Positions 6,736 through 58,150 of a DNA stretch of 64,000 nucleotides are shown here, in pieces. The notes below the pieces were generated by a model. The model ran no database searches and was not told the origin of the DNA. It worked only from the letters and a program-made list of their open reading frames with translations. The stretch's first letter is position 1. Each line of letters begins with the position of its first letter. This DNA comes from Streptomyces virus Karimac (lineage: Duplodnaviria; Heunggongvirae; Uroviricota; Caudoviricetes). The stretch lies in the IMG/VR virus record IMGVR_UViG_2974575442_000001. One strand, given 5' to 3'. Both the position numbers and the translations under genes were made by a program.

Positions 6736-7518
6736 ATGGATACTATGTCTACAGGACTAATTAAAACAGTACGGCTAGGAAAGAAGCTGTCTTTCGACAC
6801 TAAGAAGTTTCTTTCTATCGTTGAGCAGGCTTATGTCAACTCACGGCCGAAGAGTAAGTATTCCAAGAAGGTTTCCTTTTCTCCATCTTCTGTAGGCTAT
6901 GGTGCCGGTACTTGTCCAAGGTATTGGTACCTAGCCTTTACAGGTGGAGAATTTGAGAACACCTTCGACGGACTAAGTGTCGCCAATATGGCTAATGGTA
7001 CAGCAGCTCATGATCGAATCGAAAAGCTATTTGCTGATGCTGGTGTACTAGAAGAAGCAGAGCGTGAAATCACACATCAGAATCCCCCAATCAGGGGATT
7101 TGTTGATGTTATCGTGAACTTTGAAGGAAAGCGTGTGGTTGGTGAGTTCAAGACAACTCGCCAGGAATCTTACGTTCATCGTGAGTCAACTGGAACAGCC
7201 ATCGATTACCACAAGGTTCAGGTCCTTATTTATATGCGTGTCCTCGGTCTAGACGAGGGATTTGTTCTTTACGAGAACAAGAACACGCAGGAACTCTTCC
7301 TTGTCCCTGTCATCATGGATGAGACGAATTCAGAATATACGGACTACATCTTCAACTGGATGAACGAAGTTCGAAAGCTGTGGGAAGAAGACAAGCTTCC
7401 GACACGACCATTCAGTCAGAAGAATAAGGCATGCAAGTCATGCGCGCTATTCAATCTGTGTTGGAACGAATCTCCAGAGGGCGACATTACTAAAGCACCA
7501 TTGGAGGTGAAGAAGTAA
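6736..7518 (+). CDS. Cas4-like PD-(D/E)XK exonuclease with Fe-S cysteines
   Basis: N-terminal Cys (GTCPRYWYL); nuclease core VDVIVNFE...GEFKT; C-terminal CKSCALFNLC cysteine cluster. Confidence 0.6.
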   Translation: MDTMSTGLIKTVRLGKKLSFDTKKFLSIVEQAYVNSRPKSKYSKKVSFSPSSVGYGAGTCPRYWYLAFTGGEFENTFDGLSVANMANGTAAHDRIEKLFADAGVLEEAEREITHQNPPIRGFVDVIVNFEGKRVVGEFKTTRQESYVHRESTGTAIDYHKVQVLIYMRVLGLDEGFVLYENKNTQELFLVPVIMDETNSEYTDYIFNWMNEVRKLWEEDKLPTRPFSQKNKACKSCALFNLCWNESPEGDITKAPLEVKK

Positions 7519-11289: not shown

Positions 11290-13113
11290 TTGATGTCAAC
11301 AGACTTTACCGAGTTCTTCAATGCTCTATCAGACGAAGACTTTGAAGAGATTCCAGTTGATATTGAGACATTCGTTCAGAGTCCCGACTATTTGGGAATG
11401 CCTCATCTGTCCGAATATCAGTATCAGCTTATTCGTGCCTCCAGTCAGATCTATAAGGAGAGCACGCTTTACAACATTTACGAGGCACAAAAGGCCCGGC
11501 AGAGATGGCAGGAGACCTGTAACGAAGTAATCGCCTGTCTTGGAAAGGGTAGTGGTAAGGACTTCACATCAACCATTGCCTGCGCCTATATCGTGTATCT
11601 CTTGCTATGCCTGCGTAATCCAGCAAAGTATTTTGGAAAGCCTGCTGGAGACTCCATTGACATTCTCAACATTGCTATCAACGCAGCACAGGCCAACAAC
11701 GTCTTCTTCAAGGGCTTCAAGAGCCGTATCGAGGGCTCCCCCTGGTTTGTAGGAAAGTTCACGACTAAGGCGGGCCACATCGCATTTGATAAAAACGTGA
11801 ACGTCTACTCAGGCCACTCAGAGCGTGAAGCCTGGGAGGGCTACAACCTGATCTACTGCGTCCTTGACGAGATCTCAGGTTTTGCGCTAGACTCTACATC
11901 AGGAAACGAACAGGCAAAGACTGCTGATGCTGTCTACAAGATGTATCGAGCATCTGTGGACTCTCGATTCCCTGCCGAAGGAAAGGTAGTTCTTCTATCA
12001 TTCCCAAGATTCAAGAACGACTTCATTTCCCAGAGATATGAAGCTGTTGTTGCTGAAAAGCAGGTTATCGAAAGACAGCACACCTTCAAGCTAGATCCAG
12101 ACCTCCCAGATGAAATTGAGGAAAACAAGTTCTCAATTAAGTGGGAAGAGGATCACATTGTTTCTTATAACATTCCACGTGTATATGCGTTGAAGCGTCC
12201 TACATGGGAAGTAAATCCAACGCGTAGAATTGAAGATTTTACCACCGCGTTCTTTACTGATCCTGTTGATGCATTGTCTCGTTTTGCATGCATGCCGCCT
12301 GACGCAATTGACGCCTTCTTCAAGGATAAGGAGAAGGTCGAAGCGGCATTCTGTCGTCCAAATCCAATTGATGAAGATGGCACCTACAGCCCTGACTTTG
12401 TTCCAAAGGAAGGTGTGCGATACTATGTTCACGTTGACCTTGCACAGAAGCACGACCGGTGTGCAGTGGCTCTTGCGCATGTGGAGAAGTTTGTCCAAAA
12501 GAAGATCGGTGGTCAACTAAACGAAGTATTGCCATTTGTTGTGGTTGATGCTGTAAGATGGTGGACACCGAAGCCAGGACAAGACATTGACTTTGCTGAT
12601 GTTCGAGAGTACATTACTGGATTGAAGCGAAGAGGATTTGATCTAAGACTTGTAACCTTTGACCGATGGAACTCTAATGACCAGATGAAATATCTGCGAG
12701 GAGTTGGAATTAATTCAGAGGTGCTTTCTGTAGCAAAGAAGCATTACGAAGACTTGAGTTGGGTCGTATATGATCAAAGACTCATCGGTCCTGATGCTGG
12801 CGTTCTTCGCAGAGAGCTGCTACAGTTGAGAATCATGCCGAACGACAAGGTTGATCACCCAAGAACTGGCTCAAAGGACTTGGCTGACGCAACTTGTGGC
12901 GCGGTGCACAATGCGATCACACACACGCCTCGTGAAGAGAATGCTGTTATTGAGGTCCAGACCTATGAGACTCTTCGACGTGCAGAAGTTCAGGCTCGTC
13001 AGGAAGAGGTTGACAGCCAGCGAGAACGTGATAATGTGATTATAGCTCCTCGTGAGAGGCGTGAGATGCCTGATGACATTCAGGAATATCTCACGAGGCT
13101 AGAAATTATCTAA
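11290..13113 (+). CDS. terminase large subunit
   Basis: 607 aa; ATPase Walker A LGKGSGKD and Walker B VLDEISG; C-terminal RNaseH-like acidic residues; followed by HNH nuclease. Confidence 0.65.
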   Translation: MMSTDFTEFFNALSDEDFEEIPVDIETFVQSPDYLGMPHLSEYQYQLIRASSQIYKESTLYNIYEAQKARQRWQETCNEVIACLGKGSGKDFTSTIACAYIVYLLLCLRNPAKYFGKPAGDSIDILNIAINAAQANNVFFKGFKSRIEGSPWFVGKFTTKAGHIAFDKNVNVYSGHSEREAWEGYNLIYCVLDEISGFALDSTSGNEQAKTADAVYKMYRASVDSRFPAEGKVVLLSFPRFKNDFISQRYEAVVAEKQVIERQHTFKLDPDLPDEIEENKFSIKWEEDHIVSYNIPRVYALKRPTWEVNPTRRIEDFTTAFFTDPVDALSRFACMPPDAIDAFFKDKEKVEAAFCRPNPIDEDGTYSPDFVPKEGVRYYVHVDLAQKHDRCAVALAHVEKFVQKKIGGQLNEVLPFVVVDAVRWWTPKPGQDIDFADVREYITGLKRRGFDLRLVTFDRWNSNDQMKYLRGVGINSEVLSVAKKHYEDLSWVVYDQRLIGPDAGVLRRELLQLRIMPNDKVDHPRTGSKDLADATCGAVHNAITHTPREENAVIEVQTYETLRRAEVQARQEEVDSQRERDNVIIAPRERREMPDDIQEYLTRLEII

Positions 13114-14392: not shown

Positions 14393-14466
14393 GCGGATGT
14401 AGTTTAATGGTAAAACCCCTGCCTTCCAAGCAGACGACGGGAGTTCGATTCTCCTCATCCGCTCCA
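14393..14466 (+). tRNA. tRNA-Gly (anticodon TCC)
   Basis: Cloverleaf by hand: acceptor gcggatg/catccgc, T-arm gggagttcgattctcc, anticodon loop ctTCCaa, CCA encoded. Confidence 0.8.
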
Positions 14467-14595
14467 TAGACCCGGATTCGCCTCTGTCATCTTTTGTGAT
14501 ATGCTACCGGCGAGATGTAGTCTAGAATGCATCTCGGTATCTGACCCGGATATGTTAAGAGAGCGCCAGGCTCTACAACTGGCAGGGTAACACAT

Positions 14596-14667
14596 TCCCC
14601 ATTGGTGTAACCGGCAACACAGCAGACTCTGACTCTGTCGTTCCTAGTTCGAATCTAGGGTGGGGAG
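14596..14667 (+). tRNA. tRNA-Gln (anticodon CTG)
   Basis: Acceptor tccccat/gtgggga, D stem gtgt/acac, anticodon loop ctCTGac, T-arm cctagttcgaatctagg. Confidence 0.6.
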
Positions 14668-14791
14668 CTGGTCCGACTTTACGATATCGGCGGAAATAAT
14701 CGAATCGGAACGCACGCAATAACCTAGGTAAAGGTGCGGAATGAGGAGAGGAAATATGCGGGAAGCGATGGGTAAAACCTCCTCGGACCGA
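14668..14791 (+). ncRNA. Y-RNA-like ncRNA with CTGGTCCGA 5' motif
   Basis: 5' CTGGTCCGA is identical to the conserved 5' end of metazoan Y RNAs; pairs with 3' TCGGACCG to close a ~124-nt RNA; contains AATCGAATCGG motif shared with other loci. Confidence 0.45.
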
Positions 14792-14899
14792 CAATTTGTG
14801 GCCTAGTTGCAGGCCAGAATAGAATAGTGGATCTCCCTGGGTTAGGCGCTTACGCCGTCCACTGTTTGAATTCAAAGGGGTCACGCCCAAGCAACTTAT

Positions 14900-14971
14900 G
14901 CGCCCTTAGTGTAATGGCTTTGCACACGAGCTTCCAAACCTCTTAGAGTGGGTTCGATTCCTACAGGGCGT
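14900..14971 (+). tRNA. tRNA-Trp (anticodon CCA)
   Basis: Acceptor gcgccct/agggcgt, anticodon loop ttCCAaa (one C-C mismatch in stem), T-arm gtgggttcgattcctac. Confidence 0.5.
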
Positions 14972-14985
14972 GCTTGTATAATAGA

Positions 14986-15016
14986 AAACCCCGGTGCTCA
15001 ATGTGCCGGGGTTTAG
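14986..15016 (+). terminator. hairpin ccccggtg...caccgggg followed by ttta
   Basis: 8-bp GC-rich stem after the tRNA cluster; overlaps the annotated GTG start of ORF 14994. Confidence 0.4.
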
Positions 15017-15476
15017 CATTGGAGTAATATGGGATACTACACTTCGATATGAACTAGAGATCGTAAGAGACAGCGAAAGAGCCAAGGATCTCATAGACTC
15101 TGCTGATAGCGTTACAATCCCTGGAAGCTACGATCTGAATCTATCTAGACTGCTCAACGGCAACTATGATACGATGAAGTGGTACGACTGGGAAAGTGAC
15201 ATGGCAAGTCTGTCAAAGGATTGGCCAAACGTCCTCTTTGCTCTAAGCGGAGAAGGCGAGGAGCCCGGTGATCTTTGGAAGGCTTGGGTGCGAAACGGCA
15301 AGGTCATCAAGGTACAGGGTAAGATTGTTTACGATGTACCAGACATTGACAAAGTGCTTCCAGTCAACGATACTGTAGAAGAGAAGTACAGAGCACAGAA
15401 GAAGGCAGAGCTTCAAGCCACAATCAAGGATCTTGAGAATAGGCTAGCGGAGCTTAAGGGACTATCTAAGGATTAA
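14994..15476 (+). CDS. hypothetical protein (start uncertain)
   Basis: ORF with GTG start inside a hairpin; no in-frame ATG until late; coiled-coil C-terminus. Confidence 0.35.
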   Translation: MLNVPGFSIGVIWDTTLRYELEIVRDSERAKDLIDSADSVTIPGSYDLNLSRLLNGNYDTMKWYDWESDMASLSKDWPNVLFALSGEGEEPGDLWKAWVRNGKVIKVQGKIVYDVPDIDKVLPVNDTVEEKYRAQKKAELQATIKDLENRLAELKGLSKD

Positions 15477-16682: not shown

Positions 16683-18494
16683 ATGGTGGATTTCGACAAG
16701 AAGCATTCTAAAGAACTTGTGAAACTCCCTGACTCAGACCTAGAGCATAGCTCTAGGTCTTTTAGGCTTTCCAGTCAGGGTGCTATTAGGCATGTCTCAG
16801 GTGGGGCACGCCTAAGTATGAAGAATCTGATTGACTGGTTGACTGTTGCAGACTACAAGATTGAGATTGCTAAGGCTCGTCATGAAGGCAATCATGAGAA
16901 GGCTCGCAAGCTGCGAATGGAACAACAGAAGCACGCACAACCACGCAGGAAGAGATTCTACATTTGCCTGGCGGCTACTCTAGCCATCACAGCATGGCTT
17001 ACAAGTGCATTCGGTGCAGTGACATTTGGCGCGGTGGCGGTGAGCCTCTTGATCCTCTTTGCCATAGTAGGAGTAACTAACAAGACTTACATCTTTGGCG
17101 AAGAGGTAGAAGATCAGGAAGAGGACGTTATGGCTCCATTCCCAATTGCTGACGCTCGTAATAGAGAAGAAGCAATTGAATGTCTACGCAGAGCCCTTCT
17201 TGCAGAGGGAATCACACCAAGGAATATCCTTGAACCAACTCGCTACAACTGGGGTTGGGAGTTTCCAGTCATTCTTCGTAAGGGAACCCCTGACGATGTA
17301 ATGGCCAAGACAAAGGATATGGAAACCTTGATGAGACTTCCTGCTGATGGAATGCTTGTCGCGGCCACTAGATTCAGAGCCGAAGTAATCATTCGTCTAA
17401 TGCAGTCTGACCCATTTGCTGATATGACTGGGCTAGGAAGGGCTGAGCCTCTTTCCCGTTCTATCAAGAACAAGTACAAGGTTGCACAGCGAATGGATGG
17501 ACAGTTCCTTGAGCTTTCTTTGCTAAGAAATCACGCAGTCATCATCGCCGCGCCTGGTGGTGGTAAGTCTATGTTCATGAGAACACTAGCAGACATCACT
17601 ACTAGTTGCAGAGATTGTGTGACTTGGGACATTGATCCCGGTGGAAATGGTCTTGAAGTATTCGGAGACGCTATTGCACGTAGAGGTAGAACAGAAGCTG
17701 AAATTGAAGAAATGCTAACCGAGGCTCTGGAGTATACCAAGATTCGTGCAAAGAAGCTGACCAAGCTTCGCATGGGTGACAATTGGCAGCCAACCAGAGA
17801 ACATCCAGCAGTTGTCATTTTCATTGATGAGTTCATTCAGCTTAGCAAGAAGTGTAAGGATTTGGCCGTAGACATTATTCGCAATGGTCGAAAGTCAGCA
17901 ATCACAGTCATTCTAGCTGCACAGCAGGCAACCAAGGATCAGCTTGGAGCGGCTATTGCAGACGCTGTATCAATTAAGGTAATGTTTGCCTCCCGTCACG
18001 CCGACATCCCTTTGGTATTTGGAGAGGGAGCCATCAGCCAAGGTTGGAGGCCAGATAAGCTTCACCCTGCATCTGGAGAAGATCCAGAAGACGCGGGTAA
18101 ATGTTACATTATGGGCGGTGGCTCAAGAGAGCCATATCTCTACAAGGCATTCCCAATTGATCCAGAAGAAGCTATTGAAATCGGTGACGAACGAGCCGGT
18201 GAAGGAATTGTTGAACTAGATAAGGACACTTATCTAGACGTAACAGTCACAGATGTAACAGACAGGCGACTGCTCGAAGACATCGTAGACATCTTTGAGA
18301 ACTTTGATGAGCATGACTGGCTCCCTGCCAGCATCTTGACCAAGGAACTCCGAGGTTACGGACACACCTTGACAGCTCGTCAGCTACATGAGATTCTAGG
18401 TAACACCGGTCGGGAGAGCCGAGTATGGGAAGGCTCTAAGTACAAGGTTGCCGGTTATTTCAGAAAGAACATCGAGAAGCAACTGGAGCAGTAA
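16683..18494 (+). CDS. FtsK/SpoIIIE/TraG-like membrane-anchored P-loop ATPase
   Basis: Two N-terminal hydrophobic helices; Walker A AAPGGGKSMF; Walker B VVIFIDEF. Confidence 0.5.
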   Translation: MVDFDKKHSKELVKLPDSDLEHSSRSFRLSSQGAIRHVSGGARLSMKNLIDWLTVADYKIEIAKARHEGNHEKARKLRMEQQKHAQPRRKRFYICLAATLAITAWLTSAFGAVTFGAVAVSLLILFAIVGVTNKTYIFGEEVEDQEEDVMAPFPIADARNREEAIECLRRALLAEGITPRNILEPTRYNWGWEFPVILRKGTPDDVMAKTKDMETLMRLPADGMLVAATRFRAEVIIRLMQSDPFADMTGLGRAEPLSRSIKNKYKVAQRMDGQFLELSLLRNHAVIIAAPGGGKSMFMRTLADITTSCRDCVTWDIDPGGNGLEVFGDAIARRGRTEAEIEEMLTEALEYTKIRAKKLTKLRMGDNWQPTREHPAVVIFIDEFIQLSKKCKDLAVDIIRNGRKSAITVILAAQQATKDQLGAAIADAVSIKVMFASRHADIPLVFGEGAISQGWRPDKLHPASGEDPEDAGKCYIMGGGSREPYLYKAFPIDPEEAIEIGDERAGEGIVELDKDTYLDVTVTDVTDRRLLEDIVDIFENFDEHDWLPASILTKELRGYGHTLTARQLHEILGNTGRESRVWEGSKYKVAGYFRKNIEKQLEQ

Positions 18495-20433: not shown

Positions 20434-20826
20434 GTGAACGCTGTACTCATTGGCGTTCTACTGCATTTTATTGGAGACTATCTAATTCAGACGGATTGGA
20501 TGGCCCAATTGAAGACAAAGAGATGGGCACCGGCCATTCTTCATGGCGTCACCTATGGTGCTCCATTTCTTTTTGTCACGCAGTCATGGCTAGCTCTACT
20601 AGTCATCATTGGAACGCACATCGTAATTGATCATTATCGCTTGGCTCGTCATGTAGTCTGGGCAAAGAACCAATTGGCTCCGCGCGAGTTTAGATACTCC
20701 TGGGCCGAAGGCAGCAAGACAGGGTACAGAGATGACGCACCTGTGTGGCTTACCACATGGCTGATGATCATCGCTGACAACACTATTCATGTTGCCATCA
20801 ATACACTAGCCATCCTCTACCTATGA
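20434..20826 (+). CDS. membrane protein
   Basis: 130 aa, 3-4 hydrophobic helices. Confidence 0.4.
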   Translation: MNAVLIGVLLHFIGDYLIQTDWMAQLKTKRWAPAILHGVTYGAPFLFVTQSWLALLVIIGTHIVIDHYRLARHVVWAKNQLAPREFRYSWAEGSKTGYRDDAPVWLTTWLMIIADNTIHVAINTLAILYL

Positions 20827-20835
20827 GGGTGGCTT

Positions 20836-20978
20836 TTGTCATGTCACGACTGTCATGACATCGAGGTGACATGTCACGGTGACAGTGACACGTCTGTCAC
20901 GGCCTCTGTCACGCTGTCACGAATTTTGTAATGTCACGGTGTCACCTGTTGTCATCTGTCATTTTGTCATTTGTCACG
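20836..20978. repeat. iteron-like array: about 15 copies of TGTCA[CT](G) in both orientations
   Basis: tgtcatgtcacg, tgtcatgacatcg, gtgacatgtcacggtgacagtgacacgtctgtcacgg, ctgtcacgctgtcacg, tgtcacggtgtcacc, tgttgtcatctgtcattttgtcatttgtcacgg within ~140 nt. Confidence 0.7.
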
Positions 20979-21049
20979 GCGCGGCGGGCCGGTGCCGAGG
21001 GGTTACGTCTTTGCGGTTCTCCATATATCTAAGAGATGCAAGGAGGGAG

Positions 21050-21078
21050 TTGACAGAACGAAACAGACCTGTTAAGGT
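21050..21078 (+). promoter_or_regulatory. sigma70-like promoter candidate (TTGACA-17-TAAGGT) downstream of the iteron array
   Basis: Perfect -35 hexamer; weak -10; alternative TATACT at 21084. Confidence 0.35.
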
Positions 21079-21117
21079 AAATTATACTGGGAAGAGAAAA
21101 GAAAAAGAGTAACTGAA

Positions 21118-21135
21118 ATCGATACGGGTATCGAT
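21118..21135. promoter_or_regulatory. perfect palindromic operator-like site ATCGATAC-GG-GTATCGAT
   Basis: 8-2-8 inverted repeat in AT-rich leader of gene 21163. Confidence 0.5.
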
Positions 21136-21162
21136 ACAAGATATTAATATAGGATAGTATAT

Positions 21163-22837: not shown

Positions 22838-24466
22838 ATGTCCAACGCACTAACTAATGCCGCAAAGGCAACCAACAAGACTTCTCAGTCAATGAAGGCT
22901 AAGGCTGGACAGGTTAAGAACAACGCTGGTGGATTCGTCTTCCAGGTTTCTGATCAGTCTCGTCTTGAGCGCTTCCTGATTCTGGGAACTGATGGAGGAA
23001 CGTATTACGTCTCTGAGGTTAACCACACCCAGAGCAACGTAGAATTCCTCAATGAGTTCATTGCTCGTGACGAAGCCTCTGTACTGAACACAATCGTTGA
23101 TGTATCTGTCAATGGTCGTGCGTACAAGCAGAGTCCAGCCCTGTTCGCTCTAGCCTCTGTCATTGTCAACGGCAAGGATAAGCAGGCGGTCAAGGCTGTA
23201 TTCAACAAGGTCGTAAGGACTGCTACTCACCTCTACGAGGTGGTTAACTACCTTAACGAGCTTGGCGGATGGGGTCGCGCAAAGCGTGAAATCGTAGCTA
23301 GCTGGTTCGATAAGGATGCTGATAAGCTTGCTTATCAGGCAGTCAAGTATCGTTCCCGTAAGTTCGGTGGAAACACCTGGACGCTGCGAGACGTAATGCG
23401 AAAGGCTCACCCACAGAACGTTAACACGTCTGTTGCTGATTTTGTCCTAGGCAAGGAGCACGCGGCTGTAGATGACCTTCGGGTTATTGAGGGCTTCAAG
23501 CTTATGCAGAAGGCGGAGTCTGTAGAGAGTGTTCACGCAGTTCTGCGGGACTACGAGATGCTTTCTTGGGAGACAATTCCAACACAGTTCCTCACGGATG
23601 CTAGTGTTTGGAAGCGACTCTTCGCAAATGGTCAGCTTCGTGGTCAGGCTGCTGTTCGAAACATCACTCGCCTCGCGCGTATTGGTGCTTTCAAGGACAT
23701 GCAGTTTGCTGCGAGCTTCGCTGGTCAGCTAACGAATGAGGAACTGATTCGTCAGTCTCGACTGCACCCAATTAACTTCCTTAACGCTGCCGTTGTTTAC
23801 GCAGAAGGCCAGGTGGATCGAAAGAACTACTATGGCGGACGCGTAAAGAACTGGGAGACTGAGGCCGTTATTGTCGATGCAATCGATGAGGCGTTCCACA
23901 AGTCATTCAAGACCATTGAGCCAGCCGGTAAGAGGACGATGCTAGCCATCGACTGTTCCGGATCAATGAGTGCTATGGCTATGGGTCTCGACCTAAGCTG
24001 TGCACAGGTTGCTGGTGCTATGGCGATGACCATTGCGCGTACAGAGCCAGCTCACATTCTTCGCGGCTTCTCTAGCGTGGGGTACAACTGGCGTGACAGC
24101 GGTATGACCGAACTCAAGATTACTGGTCGCAGCTCTCTTGCTCAGGCAATGAGTGCAATGCGTGCGGTAAACTGGGGCGGTACAGACTGCTCACTGCCAA
24201 TGACGTGGGCTCTTGAGAACGGTGTGGAAGTTGACACCTTTGTCGTTATCACTGATAACGAGACATGGGCTGGCAAGATTCACCCATTCCAGGCTCTAAA
24301 GAAGTACCGTAAGGACACTGGCATTGATGCCCGACTTGCTGTTCTAGGAGTTGCTTCAACGCCATTTACTATCGCTGACCCAAGTGATAGCGGAATGATG
24401 GACTTCGTTGGCTTCGATAGCAACGCTCCACGTGTTCTGGCCGACTTCTCCGCAGGTCGAATCTGA
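22838..24466 (+). CDS. rsr: Ro60-like protein (TROVE domain plus C-terminal vWA/MIDAS); Rsr orthologue
   Basis: 542 aa; C-terminal MIDAS LAIDCSGSMS...GGTDCSLPM...VVITDNETW as in Ro60 vWA domain; N-terminal region of Ro60-like length and composition; Y-RNA-like genes nearby. Confidence 0.6.
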   Translation: MSNALTNAAKATNKTSQSMKAKAGQVKNNAGGFVFQVSDQSRLERFLILGTDGGTYYVSEVNHTQSNVEFLNEFIARDEASVLNTIVDVSVNGRAYKQSPALFALASVIVNGKDKQAVKAVFNKVVRTATHLYEVVNYLNELGGWGRAKREIVASWFDKDADKLAYQAVKYRSRKFGGNTWTLRDVMRKAHPQNVNTSVADFVLGKEHAAVDDLRVIEGFKLMQKAESVESVHAVLRDYEMLSWETIPTQFLTDASVWKRLFANGQLRGQAAVRNITRLARIGAFKDMQFAASFAGQLTNEELIRQSRLHPINFLNAAVVYAEGQVDRKNYYGGRVKNWETEAVIVDAIDEAFHKSFKTIEPAGKRTMLAIDCSGSMSAMAMGLDLSCAQVAGAMAMTIARTEPAHILRGFSSVGYNWRDSGMTELKITGRSSLAQAMSAMRAVNWGGTDCSLPMTWALENGVEVDTFVVITDNETWAGKIHPFQALKKYRKDTGIDARLAVLGVASTPFTIADPSDSGMMDFVGFDSNAPRVLADFSAGRI

Positions 24467-28741: not shown

Positions 28742-28819
28742 AATGACTTATGGGAGTTGAGAGGCATCACATGCCCGACTGTAATCGGGTGATCGCAGGT
28801 TCGAATCCTGCCCCTATGG
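28742..28819 (+). tRNA. tRNA-like element without pairing acceptor stem
   Basis: Perfect T-arm gcaggttcgaatcctgc; extended hairpin atcac-atg-cccga-ctgtaa-tcggg-gtgat; 3' ccctatg has no 5' partner. Confidence 0.25.
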
Positions 28820-28826
28820 TCAGCAA

Positions 28827-41464: not shown

Positions 41465-41534
41465 TGTCACATAGCTTAATGGGCAAAGCAGTCTTAGGCC
41501 AAAGACGATGTTGGTTCGAGTCCAACTGTGACAG
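41465..41534 (+). tRNA. tRNA with non-canonical (6- or 8-nt) anticodon loop
   Basis: Perfect acceptor tgtcaca/tgtgaca and T-arm gttggttcgagtccaac; anticodon hairpin gtctt-aggcca-aagac. Confidence 0.4.
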
Positions 41535-41559
41535 CAATATCAATTAGACTTCATAATCT

Positions 41560-49026: not shown

Positions 49027-51077
49027 GTTGCCACAAGCGAACCGATCTGCTAAGATCTTAGTAGGAGGCAAGATGTTTTACATTAACTGCTCTCGATGTG
49101 GTGCCCACTACAGCGATGATGACTACATGGAAAATGGAGTTTGTGGGCCATGCATCCTTGTAGAAATTACCGAGGAGTTGGGACTATATGAGTCAAAGAA
49201 CGAAGTGGATTAAGCCAGGTTCAAGAGTTATGGATCGGGCTTACATGTATGACAAGAGTGGCAATGTCCACACTGGTGAAGCCCTATTGCTAGCGCTACT
49301 CCTGCATGCCAAAGGAAAGACAAAGCGCGGCGAGAAGGAGCTTCTAGAAGTAAGCAAGATTATGAAGGACCCGAATCTACCAAAGGATAAGAAGTGATTC
49401 AGAGTAAGCTTCCTGAACTTGTTACTCGCTACGAGTGGCACTACATTGACATGGAAGAGTTTATCCAGGAGCTTTGGGGTCAAAAGTGGGAAGGCGGTGC
49501 TGCAATGGGTTTTCCTGCGCAGGACACCTACCACGACTTTGAAGTGACCGGTGGATATATTGGCGAAGGTATTGATTCAGAGGGTAATACTCTCACCACC
49601 CGATGGATGGATGAAGAGTATACCTACGATCAGGCCAAGGAGCTGATCGAAAAGTTCAAGGTTGACGGCATGCCTCGCGAGGAGTATGCTAATCCTGGAG
49701 CTGAACTTCTGCTCAACTGGCTGGCATTCGAAGGCCACATTCCCACTGGAAACTACCGTATTATCGTTTGGTGGTGACAATGTTTAACCCGAAGCGTGAA
49801 GTGTACTACACCATTGATGCATTCGATCTGAACGAACTGGTCGAAGGTGAATTTGGTTTCGCATGGGATTTCGTAGCTGCGGAAGAGTGCAGCAATGACA
49901 GTGCTCATGTCATTCATCCTGACCTTGATGGTCTTGCTGAGGACGATGAGATTCAGTATGTCCCCGCTCGAAACATCGTTGGTGAACTTGTCAAGCGAGA
50001 GATTCTTCCTTCTGGCAAGTATCTGATCGAGGTGTGCTGGTAATGGGATGGGCCGGTGGAACGCAGTTCTTTGACGGTCCTCTAGATCTCATGCTAGAGT
50101 ATGTACCAGAAGACAAGCGCAAGGAAGTCATTGAGAAGCTGTATCGAACCATCCGCGATGGTGACTGGGATACAGTAGATGAGTCCGCTTACTTCAACTT
50201 GCTTGTCAAGTATGACATTGACGGGTATGGTGAGTTGAAGAACGATCCTGACTACCTTGAGGAATTGAGTGAGGACGAGGCAGCGGAACTTAGGTAAGTG
50301 CAAGTGTGGTCGGAATAAGCTGACCGGCCACCTTCGTACCTATAATGGTTACGATAAGAATCTCTGCCCGCAGTGCAATGCAGAAAGAATCATTTATGAA
50401 ATCACGGGTCGGTCTACTGCTGACCATCTTGATAGCAGTTGGAGCGCTGGGGAATCTGGCGCTGATGATAGCACTGAATGAAGCAGAGCATGAGTTCGTT
50501 AAGGAAGTAAATGAGATACAGTGATCTCCGGGTGGATATGGCGATAAAGCATCGTGCCACCGGACGCACAGCAATTGTTGCTAAGGTCGAGAAGGGTAAG
50601 TTCCAGATCGTAGATAGCAACGGACATCCTGAAACACTAGACCGGTATTACGCCGGGGAATGGGAAAAGAGATAATGGGTTTTTGGTCCGCAGTTAAGGA
50701 CATTAAGACCATTGTGGCTCTAGAAGAGGCTGCAAAGCGTAGCGATAGCGCTGCTCGATACCTACGGAATGTTCAGGAATGGGATTGCTTCGAAGATCTC
50801 GTTCTGGAGTGGAAGCGATACTTCGAGATCGCCGCTCGTAAGGCAAAGGTCAAGCCCGAAGATCTTAAGTTTGGTGGTAAGATCTTCGATGAGGCGATGA
50901 ACCTTACGGGCAAGACTCCGCCTGCAAAGCGAAGCGGCGGCAATGCTACTGCTCGTGCAAAGAAGCTTTGTGATAGATATGGCCGTGGTGACGGTCCTTC
51001 TTTCGGTGCTGCAATGGCCGAAGGTCTGCACCTTGCTCAGGGTGGACGAAGCAACTACAGGGTCTGAAAGGTAACAA

Positions 51078-51446
51078 ATGGCTAACAGTGAATCGACCGG
51101 TCTTTCTAAGAAGGATCGGTCATTCCTGTCTCTGGCAATGGAACTCAGTTCTAACAGTAACATGAAGCAGAAGCACGGCGCTGTCATTGTTAGGTCTGGC
51201 AGGGTTCTGTCCCGAGGCTGGAATACATTGAAGAACGATCCTAGCAATGTGAGCGACGAGCACATTGAGCGCTTCTGCTCTGTGCATGCCGAAGCAATGG
51301 CCATTGCCCGGTGCAAGAAGGCCGCTGGAGCAATTATTTATATCGCTCGCAACAAGGAAGGCCAGCCGGTTTTCTCAAAGCCGTGTGACGCCTGTGACAA
51401 GGCGATCAAGCTTGCTGGTATTAAGCGTGTTGTGTACACATGTTGA
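51078..51446 (+). CDS. CDA-fold zinc-dependent deaminase (dCMP/cytidine or TadA-like)
   Basis: HAE...PCxxC zinc motifs (CSVHAEAMAI; PCDACDKAIK). Confidence 0.5.
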   Translation: MANSESTGLSKKDRSFLSLAMELSSNSNMKQKHGAVIVRSGRVLSRGWNTLKNDPSNVSDEHIERFCSVHAEAMAIARCKKAAGAIIYIARNKEGQPVFSKPCDACDKAIKLAGIKRVVYTC

Positions 51447-57715: not shown

Positions 57716-58150
57716 ATGAGAGAGCAGAAGTGCATTGTTGAAGAATGCGAGACGACAGGCAAACTCACACGAAAGATGTGTGGGAAGCATTACGCCCGGT
57801 GGCTTAGAAATGGCAAGACAGATGCAATGCCTAGAGTCGGGCGAAAGACCTGGAGCTATATTAATGATGATGGATATGTTTGCATAACACTTCCTGATGG
57901 AAGAAGAATGCGTGAACACAGATACATCATGGAGCAGCATCTAGGCCGAAGACTTCTAGACTCAGAAACCGTTCATCATAAAAATGGAGACAGAGCGGAC
58001 AACAGGCTTGAGAATCTTGAGCTGTGGAGTTCTTCTCAGCCTCCAGGACAAAGAATTTATGATAAGGTCTCTTGGGCTCTAGAACTAATTAAACAATATC
58101 CAGAGGTGGCAAGAGAGATTGAGCGCGAGAGAAATCAAGAGTCTGGATGA
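57716..58150 (+). CDS. HNH homing-type endonuclease
   Basis: HHKNGDRADNRLENLEL HNH motif plus N-terminal zinc ribbon. Confidence 0.6.
   Translation: MREQKCIVEECETTGKLTRKMCGKHYARWLRNGKTDAMPRVGRKTWSYINDDGYVCITLPDGRRMREHRYIMEQHLGRRLLDSETVHHKNGDRADNRLENLELWSSSQPPGQRIYDKVSWALELIKQYPEVAREIERERNQESG

Follow-up and report, generated by a model that had tools for sequence, protein, structure and literature searches.

Two TGTCAY repeat arrays in Streptomyces phage Karimac and a DUF2637 membrane protein as their candidate reader

Introduction

The clt loci of Streptomyces plasmids hold direct 8-bp repeats that are read by the cognate TraB protein, and a role in spreading phage DNA has been proposed for putative SpdB2 homologues of actinophages (Thoma et al. 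2015, PMC4447253). Here, we describe short repeats of a comparable kind in Streptomyces virus Karimac, starting from a 64,000-nucleotide stretch of its genome (the window). TGTCAY motifs are densely packed in the 336-bp gap between genes 122 and 123 (array 2), and a second, larger array lies in gene 33 (array 1), which encodes a DUF2637 membrane protein, gp33. We give an even chance to the reading that array 2 is multi-site docking DNA, centromere-like or clt-like, for the membrane-tethered gp33. To our knowledge, no account exists of how lytic phages of 130 kb arrange or transport their DNA in the compartmented hyphae of Streptomyces, and DUF2637, a widespread actinobacterial family, has no assigned function.

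The Karimac arrays resemble the clt/TraB systems of pSVH1, pIJ101 and pJV1 in having short element-specific cis repeats, a word of their own for each element, and a putative reader that is the C-terminal winged-helix/helix-turn-helix (HTH) part of a membrane-anchored protein (PMC4447253); Karimac also encodes a TraB-like motor. However, the Karimac units are 6-7 bp instead of 8 bp, they occur in both orientations and in 17-30 copies, and there are two arrays per genome. Moreover, the main array sits in the gene of a four-helix DUF2637 protein and not in the translocase gene, and Karimac is a lytic phage. The structure model gives gp33 the same general architecture as SpdB2, but the DNA binding of SpdB2 is reported to be non-specific and no cognate repeat array has been described for it.

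Iteron origins within initiator genes are known from lambda, where ori-lambda lies in the O gene, and from SPP1, where G38P is served by oriL in gene 38 and by a distant oriR. The Karimac layout is like these in that the sites lie in the linker-coding part of the presumed binder's gene, a second cluster lies elsewhere, and an AT-rich stretch adjoins array 2. It differs by its far shorter, unphased units of mixed orientation, a membrane-embedded protein, no AT-rich element at array 1 and no skew signal. The phi29 protein p16.7 has a membrane anchor and a small helical domain that binds DNA, and it brings phage DNA to the membrane. Its likeness to gp33 would be one of functional analogy, since p16.7 has one transmembrane helix, binds DNA non-specifically and is not known to have cognate arrays or homology to gp33. 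As in ParB/parS systems, multi-copy cis sites would nucleate a binder and can lie in the binder's gene, and Karimac encodes a protein with a ParB N-terminal domain; yet it has no 16-bp palindromic parS and no annotated ParA-type NTPase, and the presumed reader is a membrane protein. In kind, therefore, the arrays appear close to clt/TraB and to centromere-like arrays. What would be new is the DUF2637 reader, the sites within its linker-coding part, the two loci per genome and the private words of satellite phages. Full-text literature on DUF2637, on SpdB2 in phages, on BE-cluster phages and on their satellites yielded no description of these arrays.

Results

Array 2 is a cluster of short, irregularly spaced motifs

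By megablast, the window belongs to Streptomyces phage Karimac (NC_048724.1, 131,909 bp; cluster BE, genus Karimacvirus, subfamily Boydwoodruffvirinae), and window base 1 is record base 58,075. Karimac is lytic, with a direct terminal repeat of 12.6 kb and about 45 tRNA genes plus a transfer-messenger RNA (tmRNA) gene (PMC5764925).

A first-pass annotation of the window had reported about 15 copies of TGTCA[CT](G), in both orientations, within some 140 nt of the gap. We counted 17 copies of TGTCAY in 141 nt. In comparison, the whole window contains 89 copies, which is not above the number in shuffled sequences (83 ± 9); the anomaly therefore lies in the clustering of the motif and not in its abundance. 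Of ten TGTCACG copies in the window, seven fall in array 2. With a genome-wide TGTCAY background of 1.13 per kb over 131,909 bp, the Poisson probability of at least 17 copies in 141 nt is about 1e-27, which disposes of the concern that motif density might be no higher here than elsewhere.

The copies follow the consensus TGTCA[C>T][G>others] and show no base preference at their 5′ side. From one start to the next they are 5 to 17 nt apart, without a period; they are not tandem duplicates, and the spacers are unrelated to each other. With a core of only 6-7 bp, such irregular spacing and 4 of the 17 copies inverted, the array does not consist of classical iterons, as the earlier name would suggest, although the idea of protein-binding-type repeats stands: this is a selected, non-coding array that acts at the DNA level. 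A 77-amino acid open reading frame (ORF) over the array, which the same annotation took to be probably spurious, has no Pfam match and loses its frame in relatives with 84-92% identity, so that judgement was sound. Indels of 1-2 nt in the spacers shift the frame, and the open frames differ between relatives. Long open frames occur here because TGTCAC contains no stop codon in any frame of the + strand.

A second, larger array lies in the gene of a DUF2637 membrane protein

Extending the motif search to the whole genome, as had been proposed, we found only one other TGTCAY cluster in the 131.9 kb. This array 1, with about 30 copies, lies outside the window. Apart from the two arrays, no 150-nt stretch of the genome contains more than three copies. 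Arrays 1 and 2 are 64 kb apart and share the same consensus, the same flank preference and the same 3:1 bias to the genomic + strand. The location of the second array, inside the gene of a membrane-anchored HTH protein, indicates a specific reader.

The 24 copies inside gene 33 fall into four frame and orientation classes, which encode Val-Thr, Arg/Asp-Asp-Lys, x-Ser-Arg and Pro-Val-Met/Asn-Val-Thr. Redrawing the codons from phage usage while keeping the protein fixed gave a mean of 3.8 copies (maximum 9 in 500 trials), and shuffling synonymous codons within the gene gave a mean of 8.8 (maximum 16). The observed number far exceeds that from codon resampling and is above the shuffle maximum as well; therefore, selection acts on the DNA, and the low-complexity linker simply tolerates the repeat. 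A copy number beyond that of a fixed protein with resampled codons also answers the earlier caveat that the repeat might encode a low-complexity protein segment, as such a segment does not account for it.

The gp33 protein matches DUF2637 (PF10935) over residues 23-165 with 28.0 bits against a cut-off of 22.8, and precomputed PF10935 assignments exist for 60 of 73 homologues. We examined its architecture using an AlphaFold model of a 96%-identical homologue, built from an alignment of 32 sequences. This model begins with four hydrophobic helices, all of them long (residues 6-136), and continues with a pair of amphipathic helices, which are followed by a disordered linker of about 60 residues (180-242), which is the part that array 1 encodes, and by a C-terminal three-helix bundle (250-292) of helix-turn-helix-like shape. 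The tail is thus predicted to be a small, HTH-like domain of DNA-binding type. A profile of this domain found nothing in PDB and Pfam, and a Foldseek search of PDB with the full gp33 model gave no match at E below 2. SpdB of pIJ101 has no DUF2637 match and no Pfam family, and its hhalign comparison with the gp33 alignment was insignificant (probability 0.9%); by sequence, gp33 is not demonstrably homologous to it.

Both loci are conserved and change their motifs together

Four Karimacvirus genomes that are 84-92% identical in the region keep 11-17 copies in array 2. In an alignment of Karimac, LukeCage and BoomerJR, the motif columns are 92-95% identical against 57-73% for the spacers (Fisher p 4e-7 to 4e-4). 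Gains and losses of copies occur at the 3′ end of the array; in Wofford the middle is missing, with 11 copies remaining. All relatives that we examined for array 1 contain it (LukeCage, BoomerJR, Riptide, Braelyn, Jay2Jay, Coruscant and four metagenomic relatives), as does each of the Boydwoodruffvirinae genomes checked, and array 2 was found in three genera, namely Karimacvirus, part of Samistivirus, and Coruscantvirus. A scan of IMG/VR for three TGTCAC motifs in short gaps returned at least 120 matches, and those listed among them were mostly unrelated.

The two loci co-vary in their motif make-up. In Karimacvirus, array 1 has 29-30 copies of TGTCAY and array 2 has 16-17, with no TGTCC at either. 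In Samistivirus, TGTCAY and TGTCC occur at about 1:1 at each locus (13-18 and 17-20 copies in array 1; 5-6 and 5-7 in array 2). The end of the protein varies along with the motif. Within the phage clade, all seven proteins that end in ...SRLD(xVPG) go with 10-20 copies of GGACA/TGTCC, and all four that end in ...SRM or ...SRV go with 0-1; the latter belong to two lineages, the Karimac group and the distant P0058.

The second locus also persists in other forms. Mandalore (Coruscantvirus) has about 14 mixed TGTCA/TGTCC copies past the terminator of the DUF3307 gene (gene 122 in Karimac) and a further 12 within that gene (L013 2295-2400). In Jay2Jay, EGole and Paradiddles, a gene for a 650-amino acid 'hydrolase' replaces the intergenic array, and the terminator and the promoter stay. 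The Jay2Jay-type hydrolase gene (L008 1099-3051; likewise L009 and L010) contains 23 TGTCAY/TGTCC copies versus a codon-resampled mean of 7.3 and maximum of 13, and the Jay2Jay DUF3307 gene (L008 ~770-860) contains 7 versus 1.7. Across Samistivirus and Coruscantvirus, the DUF3307 gene holds 7-12 copies by way of synonymous codons, whereas Karimac encodes the same peptide without them; Gly-Val-Thr, for example, reads ggTGTCACa in Jay2Jay and ggcgtcacc in Karimac. Judged from these comparisons, the second locus is ancestral, and a motif-rich patch is maintained at this genome position in different physical forms. This favours a positional function and disfavours a role tied to the gene-123 promoter.

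Satellites and a plasmid carry private arrays in their DUF2637 genes

MiniFlayer and MulchRoom are satellite phages of BE helpers and are reported to lack replication genes (deCarvalho et al. 2023, PMC10690885). Each encodes a full-length gp33 homologue (27-32% identity, E 1e-24 to 5e-45). In the linker-coding part of this gene, MiniFlayer has 16 copies of TGCGAA against a codon-resampled mean of 1.6, and MulchRoom has 24 copies of RCGACA against 3.6. In the corresponding position, the DUF2637 homologue of a 93-kb Streptomyces plasmid holds TGAGCG 33 times, and MulchRoom-like satellites integrated in Streptomyces chromosomes have GGACA arrays in their DUF2637 genes. All private in-gene arrays that we tested far exceed the codon-resampled expectation. 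Both satellites contain TGTCAY at background density, with no array, and neither has an FtsK-like gene. At 13 of 17 loci, the DUF2637 gene contains the strongest hexamer cluster of the whole locus or one nearly as strong. Taken together, the comparative evidence indicates that the specificity determinant is encoded by the element itself, and the DUF2637 tail is the obvious candidate.

Several other observations concern these elements. On a 93-kb metagenomic contig (L031 7442-10858), a distant DUF2637 gene lies directly downstream of the gene for a 745-amino acid TrwB/FtsK-like ATPase, which physically links the two protein types elsewhere. A short protein consisting of a ParB N-terminal domain only is encoded alongside the array-bearing DUF2637 gene on the 93-kb Streptomyces plasmid (L027 3434-3781), and Karimac has such a protein too, of 117 amino acids, within its terminal repeat (record 6790-7143 and 126109-126462), with no annotated ParA; this type of protein is a possible partner. 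The 34-kb plasmid of Streptomyces sp. NBC_01335 (L026) has 14 copies of CCCTGC/CAGGGA at 859-1183, between primase-polymerase and helicase genes. This cluster is a candidate iteron origin, apart from the DUF2637 gene of the plasmid, and the element looks like a phage-plasmid.

Other features of the gap and its surroundings

The coordinates of the features are collected in Table 1. From gene 122 onwards, the order in the gap is terminator, array 2, GC block, promoter, leader, palindrome, a Shine-Dalgarno-like AGGA (21151-21154) and the ATG of gene 123. With a terminator before it and a promoter after it, array 2 separates two transcription units, the second of which has gene 123 as its first gene. 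An Rfam scan of the whole window at the gathering threshold found tRNAs and tmRNA only, and nothing in the gap.

Table 1 Features of the two array loci and of gene 110. Positions are those of the window unless marked as positions of record NC_048724.1.
Feature	Position	Strand	Basis or remark
Gene 110, membrane-anchored FtsK/TraB-like DNA translocase (predicted)	16683..18494	+	PHROG 12531 (FtsK/SpoIIIE-like)
Gene 122, DUF3307 membrane protein	20434..20826	+	Pfam PF11750, 31 bits; annotation
Intrinsic-terminator-like hairpin	20808..20834	+	10-bp stem then TTTTGT; overlaps gene 122 stop codon
Array 2, TGTCA[C>T][G]	20837-20977	13 copies +, 4 copies -	motif count
Spurious ORF (77 amino acids)	20879..21112	+	spans array, GC block and promoter
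GC-rich block	20978..21003		62% GC in 60-nt window
Predicted host sigma-70 (HrdB)-type promoter	21050..21078	+	TTGACA 21050-21055, 17-nt spacer, TGT-TAAGGT 21070-21078
TTATACTGG box and purine-rich leader (GGGAAGAGAAAAGAAAAAGAG)	21083..21112	+	invariant in four Karimacvirus genomes
Palindrome ATCGATAC-GG-GTATCGAT, perfect 8-2-8	21118-21135		inverted-repeat search
ATCGATAC, two copies at 12-nt period	21118..21137		direct-repeat search; coincides with palindrome
Gene 123, 84 amino acids	21163..21417	+	annotation; PHROG 7499 (unknown function); no Pfam match
Array 1	record 14449-14925 (L014)	mainly genomic +	3′ half of gene 33 and next 100 nt
Gene 33, DUF2637 membrane protein gp33	record 14558-15442	minus	annotation and Pfam

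The terminator hairpin folds at -20.3 kcal/mol (z = -5.0; none of 200 shuffles was as stable) and is kept in all relatives, including those that lack the array. The GC block, the -35 box and the perfect palindrome of the first-pass annotation are all present. The RNA fold of the GC block is nothing beyond that of shuffles (z = +0.6). It is 71-96% conserved among relatives and is missing from Mandalore, where the array reaches the promoter directly.

The predicted promoter has hexamers of sigma-70 type, with the -10 element TAAGGT at 21073-21078 carrying a TG extension and lying 85 nt before the ATG of gene 123. A strict promoter scan missed it because this -10 matches TATAAT at only three of six positions. 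It is unchanged across Karimacvirus and is retained in Jay2Jay where a gene replaces the array, so the array is not a required part of an 'early switch'. Among the three functions first suggested for the region, the early switch is thus disfavoured, as the promoter persists without the array, and the centromere-like site comes near our best reading.

Between 40 and 118 kb, the + strand contains about 50 matches to TTGACA/T-N16-18-TAnnnT, the promoter at 21050 being one of them. These matches (for example, at window 14267, 15642, 18706, 19598, 21571 and 24647) often have TG ahead of the -10 and 'TAGTA' behind it, and many stand right before tRNA genes or small ORFs, which suggests that the tRNA region is transcribed in many short units from promoters of host type. 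Upstream of gene 66, at record 51043, stands a twin promoter that shares the TTATACTKGGAGAAGAAA leader. The two (record 51012-51090 and window 21050-21112) share an extended format, TTGACAg-N17-TTAnrGT..TTATACTKGG followed by a purine leader of the AGAAGAAAGAGGAAAA type, and both are in the lowest-GC spots of the genome.

The palindrome is not exceptional by itself, as the window contains 19 perfect inverted repeats with 8-nt arms (4.4 in shuffles). Only Karimac has it in perfect form. In LukeCage, BoomerJR and Wofford, its place is taken by a pair of (A)AATCGAT units at a distance of 12 nt (AAATCGAT twice); at the same position in the leader, Samistivirus shows pairs based on ACCGGT or CTAG, or an inverted repeat of 9-5-9 form, and Mandalore has two 9-3-9 palindromes. 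Hence, the palindrome reported as an operator is real, but its sequence is lineage-specific and not a conserved operator unit. Its RNA fold in Karimac is weak (z = -1.8). A palindromic element that recurs with a free sequence would suit either an operator bound by a co-evolving dimer or a hairpin in the RNA.

Over 258 residues, the gene 110 product, gp110, can be aligned with the TraB motor domain of pIJ101 at 24% identity (pairwise E = 2e-6). It gave weak AAA matches only, below cut-off, in Pfam, and nothing in a sequence search of PDB. The C-terminal region is nearly invariant across genera, and a homologue search with the C-terminal fragment gave a single match.

A few further features of the genome may be recorded here. 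The gene at window 22838-24466, 1.4 kb further downstream and among tRNA genes, codes for an RNA-binding protein that is Ro60/TROVE-like and contains a vWA domain; a TROVE protein is also present on the contig L032, which bears a distant DUF2637 gene. ARAGORN reports two tRNA-like genes with two-base 'anticodons' (gt and gc) at 28748-28821 and 41465-41535, whose anticodon loops are unusual, and the second is tRNA-OTHER in the GenBank record. Near the left end, within the terminal repeat, ATATAAGACAT(AG) occurs five times in 400 nt (record ~380-800) and is copied in the right repeat, and TGACTAAAAA occurs three times at record 118,916, right before the right repeat boundary. Both repeats may be tied to the ends, to packaging or to replication.

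Discussion

From the paired arrays we infer that gp33 binds them and that this binding has the following effect. The C-terminal HTH domain of gp33 would bind single 6-7-bp TGTCA[C/T](G) sites as a monomer, and many weak contacts from a membrane-embedded, probably oligomeric gp33 would add up to high avidity. Flexible tethers of about 60 residues would need neither phasing nor a fixed orientation of the sites, which would explain the irregular layout of the arrays. The phage DNA would thereby be attached to the membrane at two defined loci, 64 kb apart. Such attachment may serve to organise replicating genomes or to segregate and partition them. Alternatively, it may pass the DNA on to gp110, the FtsK/TraB-like pump, which would carry it from one hyphal compartment to another, as has been proposed for the Spd and TraB proteins of Streptomyces plasmids.

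Several points weigh against gp33 docking. The link between gp33 and the motif is correlative, and the binding is predicted. The co-variation of tail and motif could partly reflect shared descent, as array 1 lies in the gene itself. The distant DUF2637 genes on L031, L032 and L026, the last being a second plasmid-borne homologue, have no in-gene array. The loss in Wofford means that the copy number of array 2 is not tightly constrained. The two remaining points are those that an origin of replication would explain: the 100-nt stretch with the lowest GC in the genome (30%, a value shared with two other sites) lies directly after array 2, beginning about 90 nt past it, as expected of an origin, and in MulchRoom the DUF2637-gene array is the only repeat cluster, so no other is available to serve as one.

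As an origin, array 2 would bind an initiator, gp33 or another protein, and the GC block with the AT-rich promoter and leader would unwind. Further support for this comes from the annotated replication genes of Karimac (helicase, primase, SSB and Pol III alpha), which include no initiator; from the satellites, which are reported without replication genes (PMC10690885) and yet keep a DUF2637 gene with an array of their own; and from the two-site layout, with one site in the binder's gene, which by analogy resembles lambda O/ori and SPP1 G38P with oriL/oriR. Still, we regard an origin as unlikely. Irregular 6-7-bp units of mixed orientation contrast with the phased 17-22-bp units of iterons, array 1 (43-57% GC throughout) has no flanking AT-rich stretch, and an integral membrane protein would be an unusual initiator. 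The GC-skew analysis that had been advised for mapping an origin did not point to array 2, as the cumulative skew only tracks the direction of transcription: it is lowest at the 18-kb strand switch, peaks at the right repeat boundary and shows no inflection at 79 kb. The AT-rich stretch is equally well explained as promoter plus leader, given its twin at record 51043. Finally, MiniFlayer (OQ357865, L023) has a separate, classic-looking candidate. Its gene 13 (11911-13017) encodes a winged-helix-like N-terminus and contains six TGTCTGTCC/GGACAGACA repeats at 12250-12420, followed by an AT-rich stretch; it looks like a lambda-O-type initiator with an in-gene origin, by analogy, and this suggests that the DUF2637 system is something else. 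It has no Pfam or PHROG match, and tblastn found no homologue in Karimac.

We also asked whether gp110 rather than gp33 could be the reader, so that its C-terminal winged-helix-like domain would recognise TGTCAC at a clt-like locus and pump phage DNA across septa. The protein is membrane-anchored and aligns with the TraB motor, TraB proteins read direct repeats at their clt loci, array 2 lies only 2.3 kb downstream of gene 110, and TGTCAC is common to all genera just as the gp110 C-terminus is nearly invariant. That same invariance tells against it, because the C-terminus stays unchanged where TGTCC joins the arrays. Furthermore, the main array is 60 kb away from gene 110 in a different gene, satellites, the likely beneficiaries of a helper pump, use private words with TGTCAY at background, and no polar KOPS-like strand pattern exists outside the arrays. 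The invariant C-terminus, the private words and the lack of polarity make gp110 the less likely reader, and we rate this version as improbable. A regulatory array, in which a transcription factor at the repeats would time genes 123-124 through the promoter at 21050 with the ATCGAT palindrome as a second operator, has even less to recommend it. Array 2 does sit 70-215 nt upstream of a consensus promoter, and the leader element varies by lineage and stays palindromic, as co-evolving operators do. But the same motif array occurs in a coding region far from any promoter-like context, the Jay2Jay-type phages keep promoter and leader without the intergenic array, about 50 similar promoter matches have no array, and the GC block that separates the two is variable and absent in Mandalore. 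The idea that array 2 has no function, being a low-complexity coding remnant, a slippage product or a chance cluster, is effectively refuted. It could draw on the overlapping ORF, which is annotated by some as a gene in BoomerJR, Riptide and Spilled, and on the partial loss in Wofford; the Poisson value, motifs conserved over diverging spacers, a frame that is not conserved, copies that are not tandem duplicates, and the presence of the array across three genera all contradict it.

Other classes of site were considered and rejected. In the host, WhiA recognises GACAC, DnaA the box TTGTCCACA, PhoP and MtrA direct repeats, and ParB parS. We rejected these factors as readers in view of the motif mismatch, the irregular spacing and the use of other words by satellites in the same hosts. 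Element-specific words also led us to reject Chi-like sites of nuclease protection. KOPS-like polarity was rejected as well, since the motif outside the arrays is 2:1 antisense across the + transcribed region and shows no switch at the arrays.

Returning to gp33 docking, it may be one case of a broader system, a view that we hold tentatively and consider doubtful as yet. DUF2637-HTH proteins and their private in-gene hexamer arrays would form an element-specific and hitherto undescribed 'address label' that tethers DNA to the membrane and, together with an FtsK/TraB-like pump, moves or partitions it between mycelial compartments. If true, such labels would be common to large lytic Streptomyces phages, their satellites and some plasmids, a virus would be spreading in a conjugation-like manner, and satellites with a label of their own would be handled separately from the helper. 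This bears on how Streptomyces satellite phages stay distinct from their helpers. Were the arrays origins after all, they would show where replication starts in BE phages and in satellites that are thought to lack replication functions. The findings also illustrate that strong DNA-level constraints can hide in low-complexity 'linker' coding regions. For the DUF2637 family, the pairing of an HTH-tailed membrane protein with a private in-gene hexamer array and a second array elsewhere gives a concrete hypothesis, with predicted binding words for five specificity classes: TGTCAC, TGTCC/GGACA, RCGACA, TGCGAA and TGAGCG.

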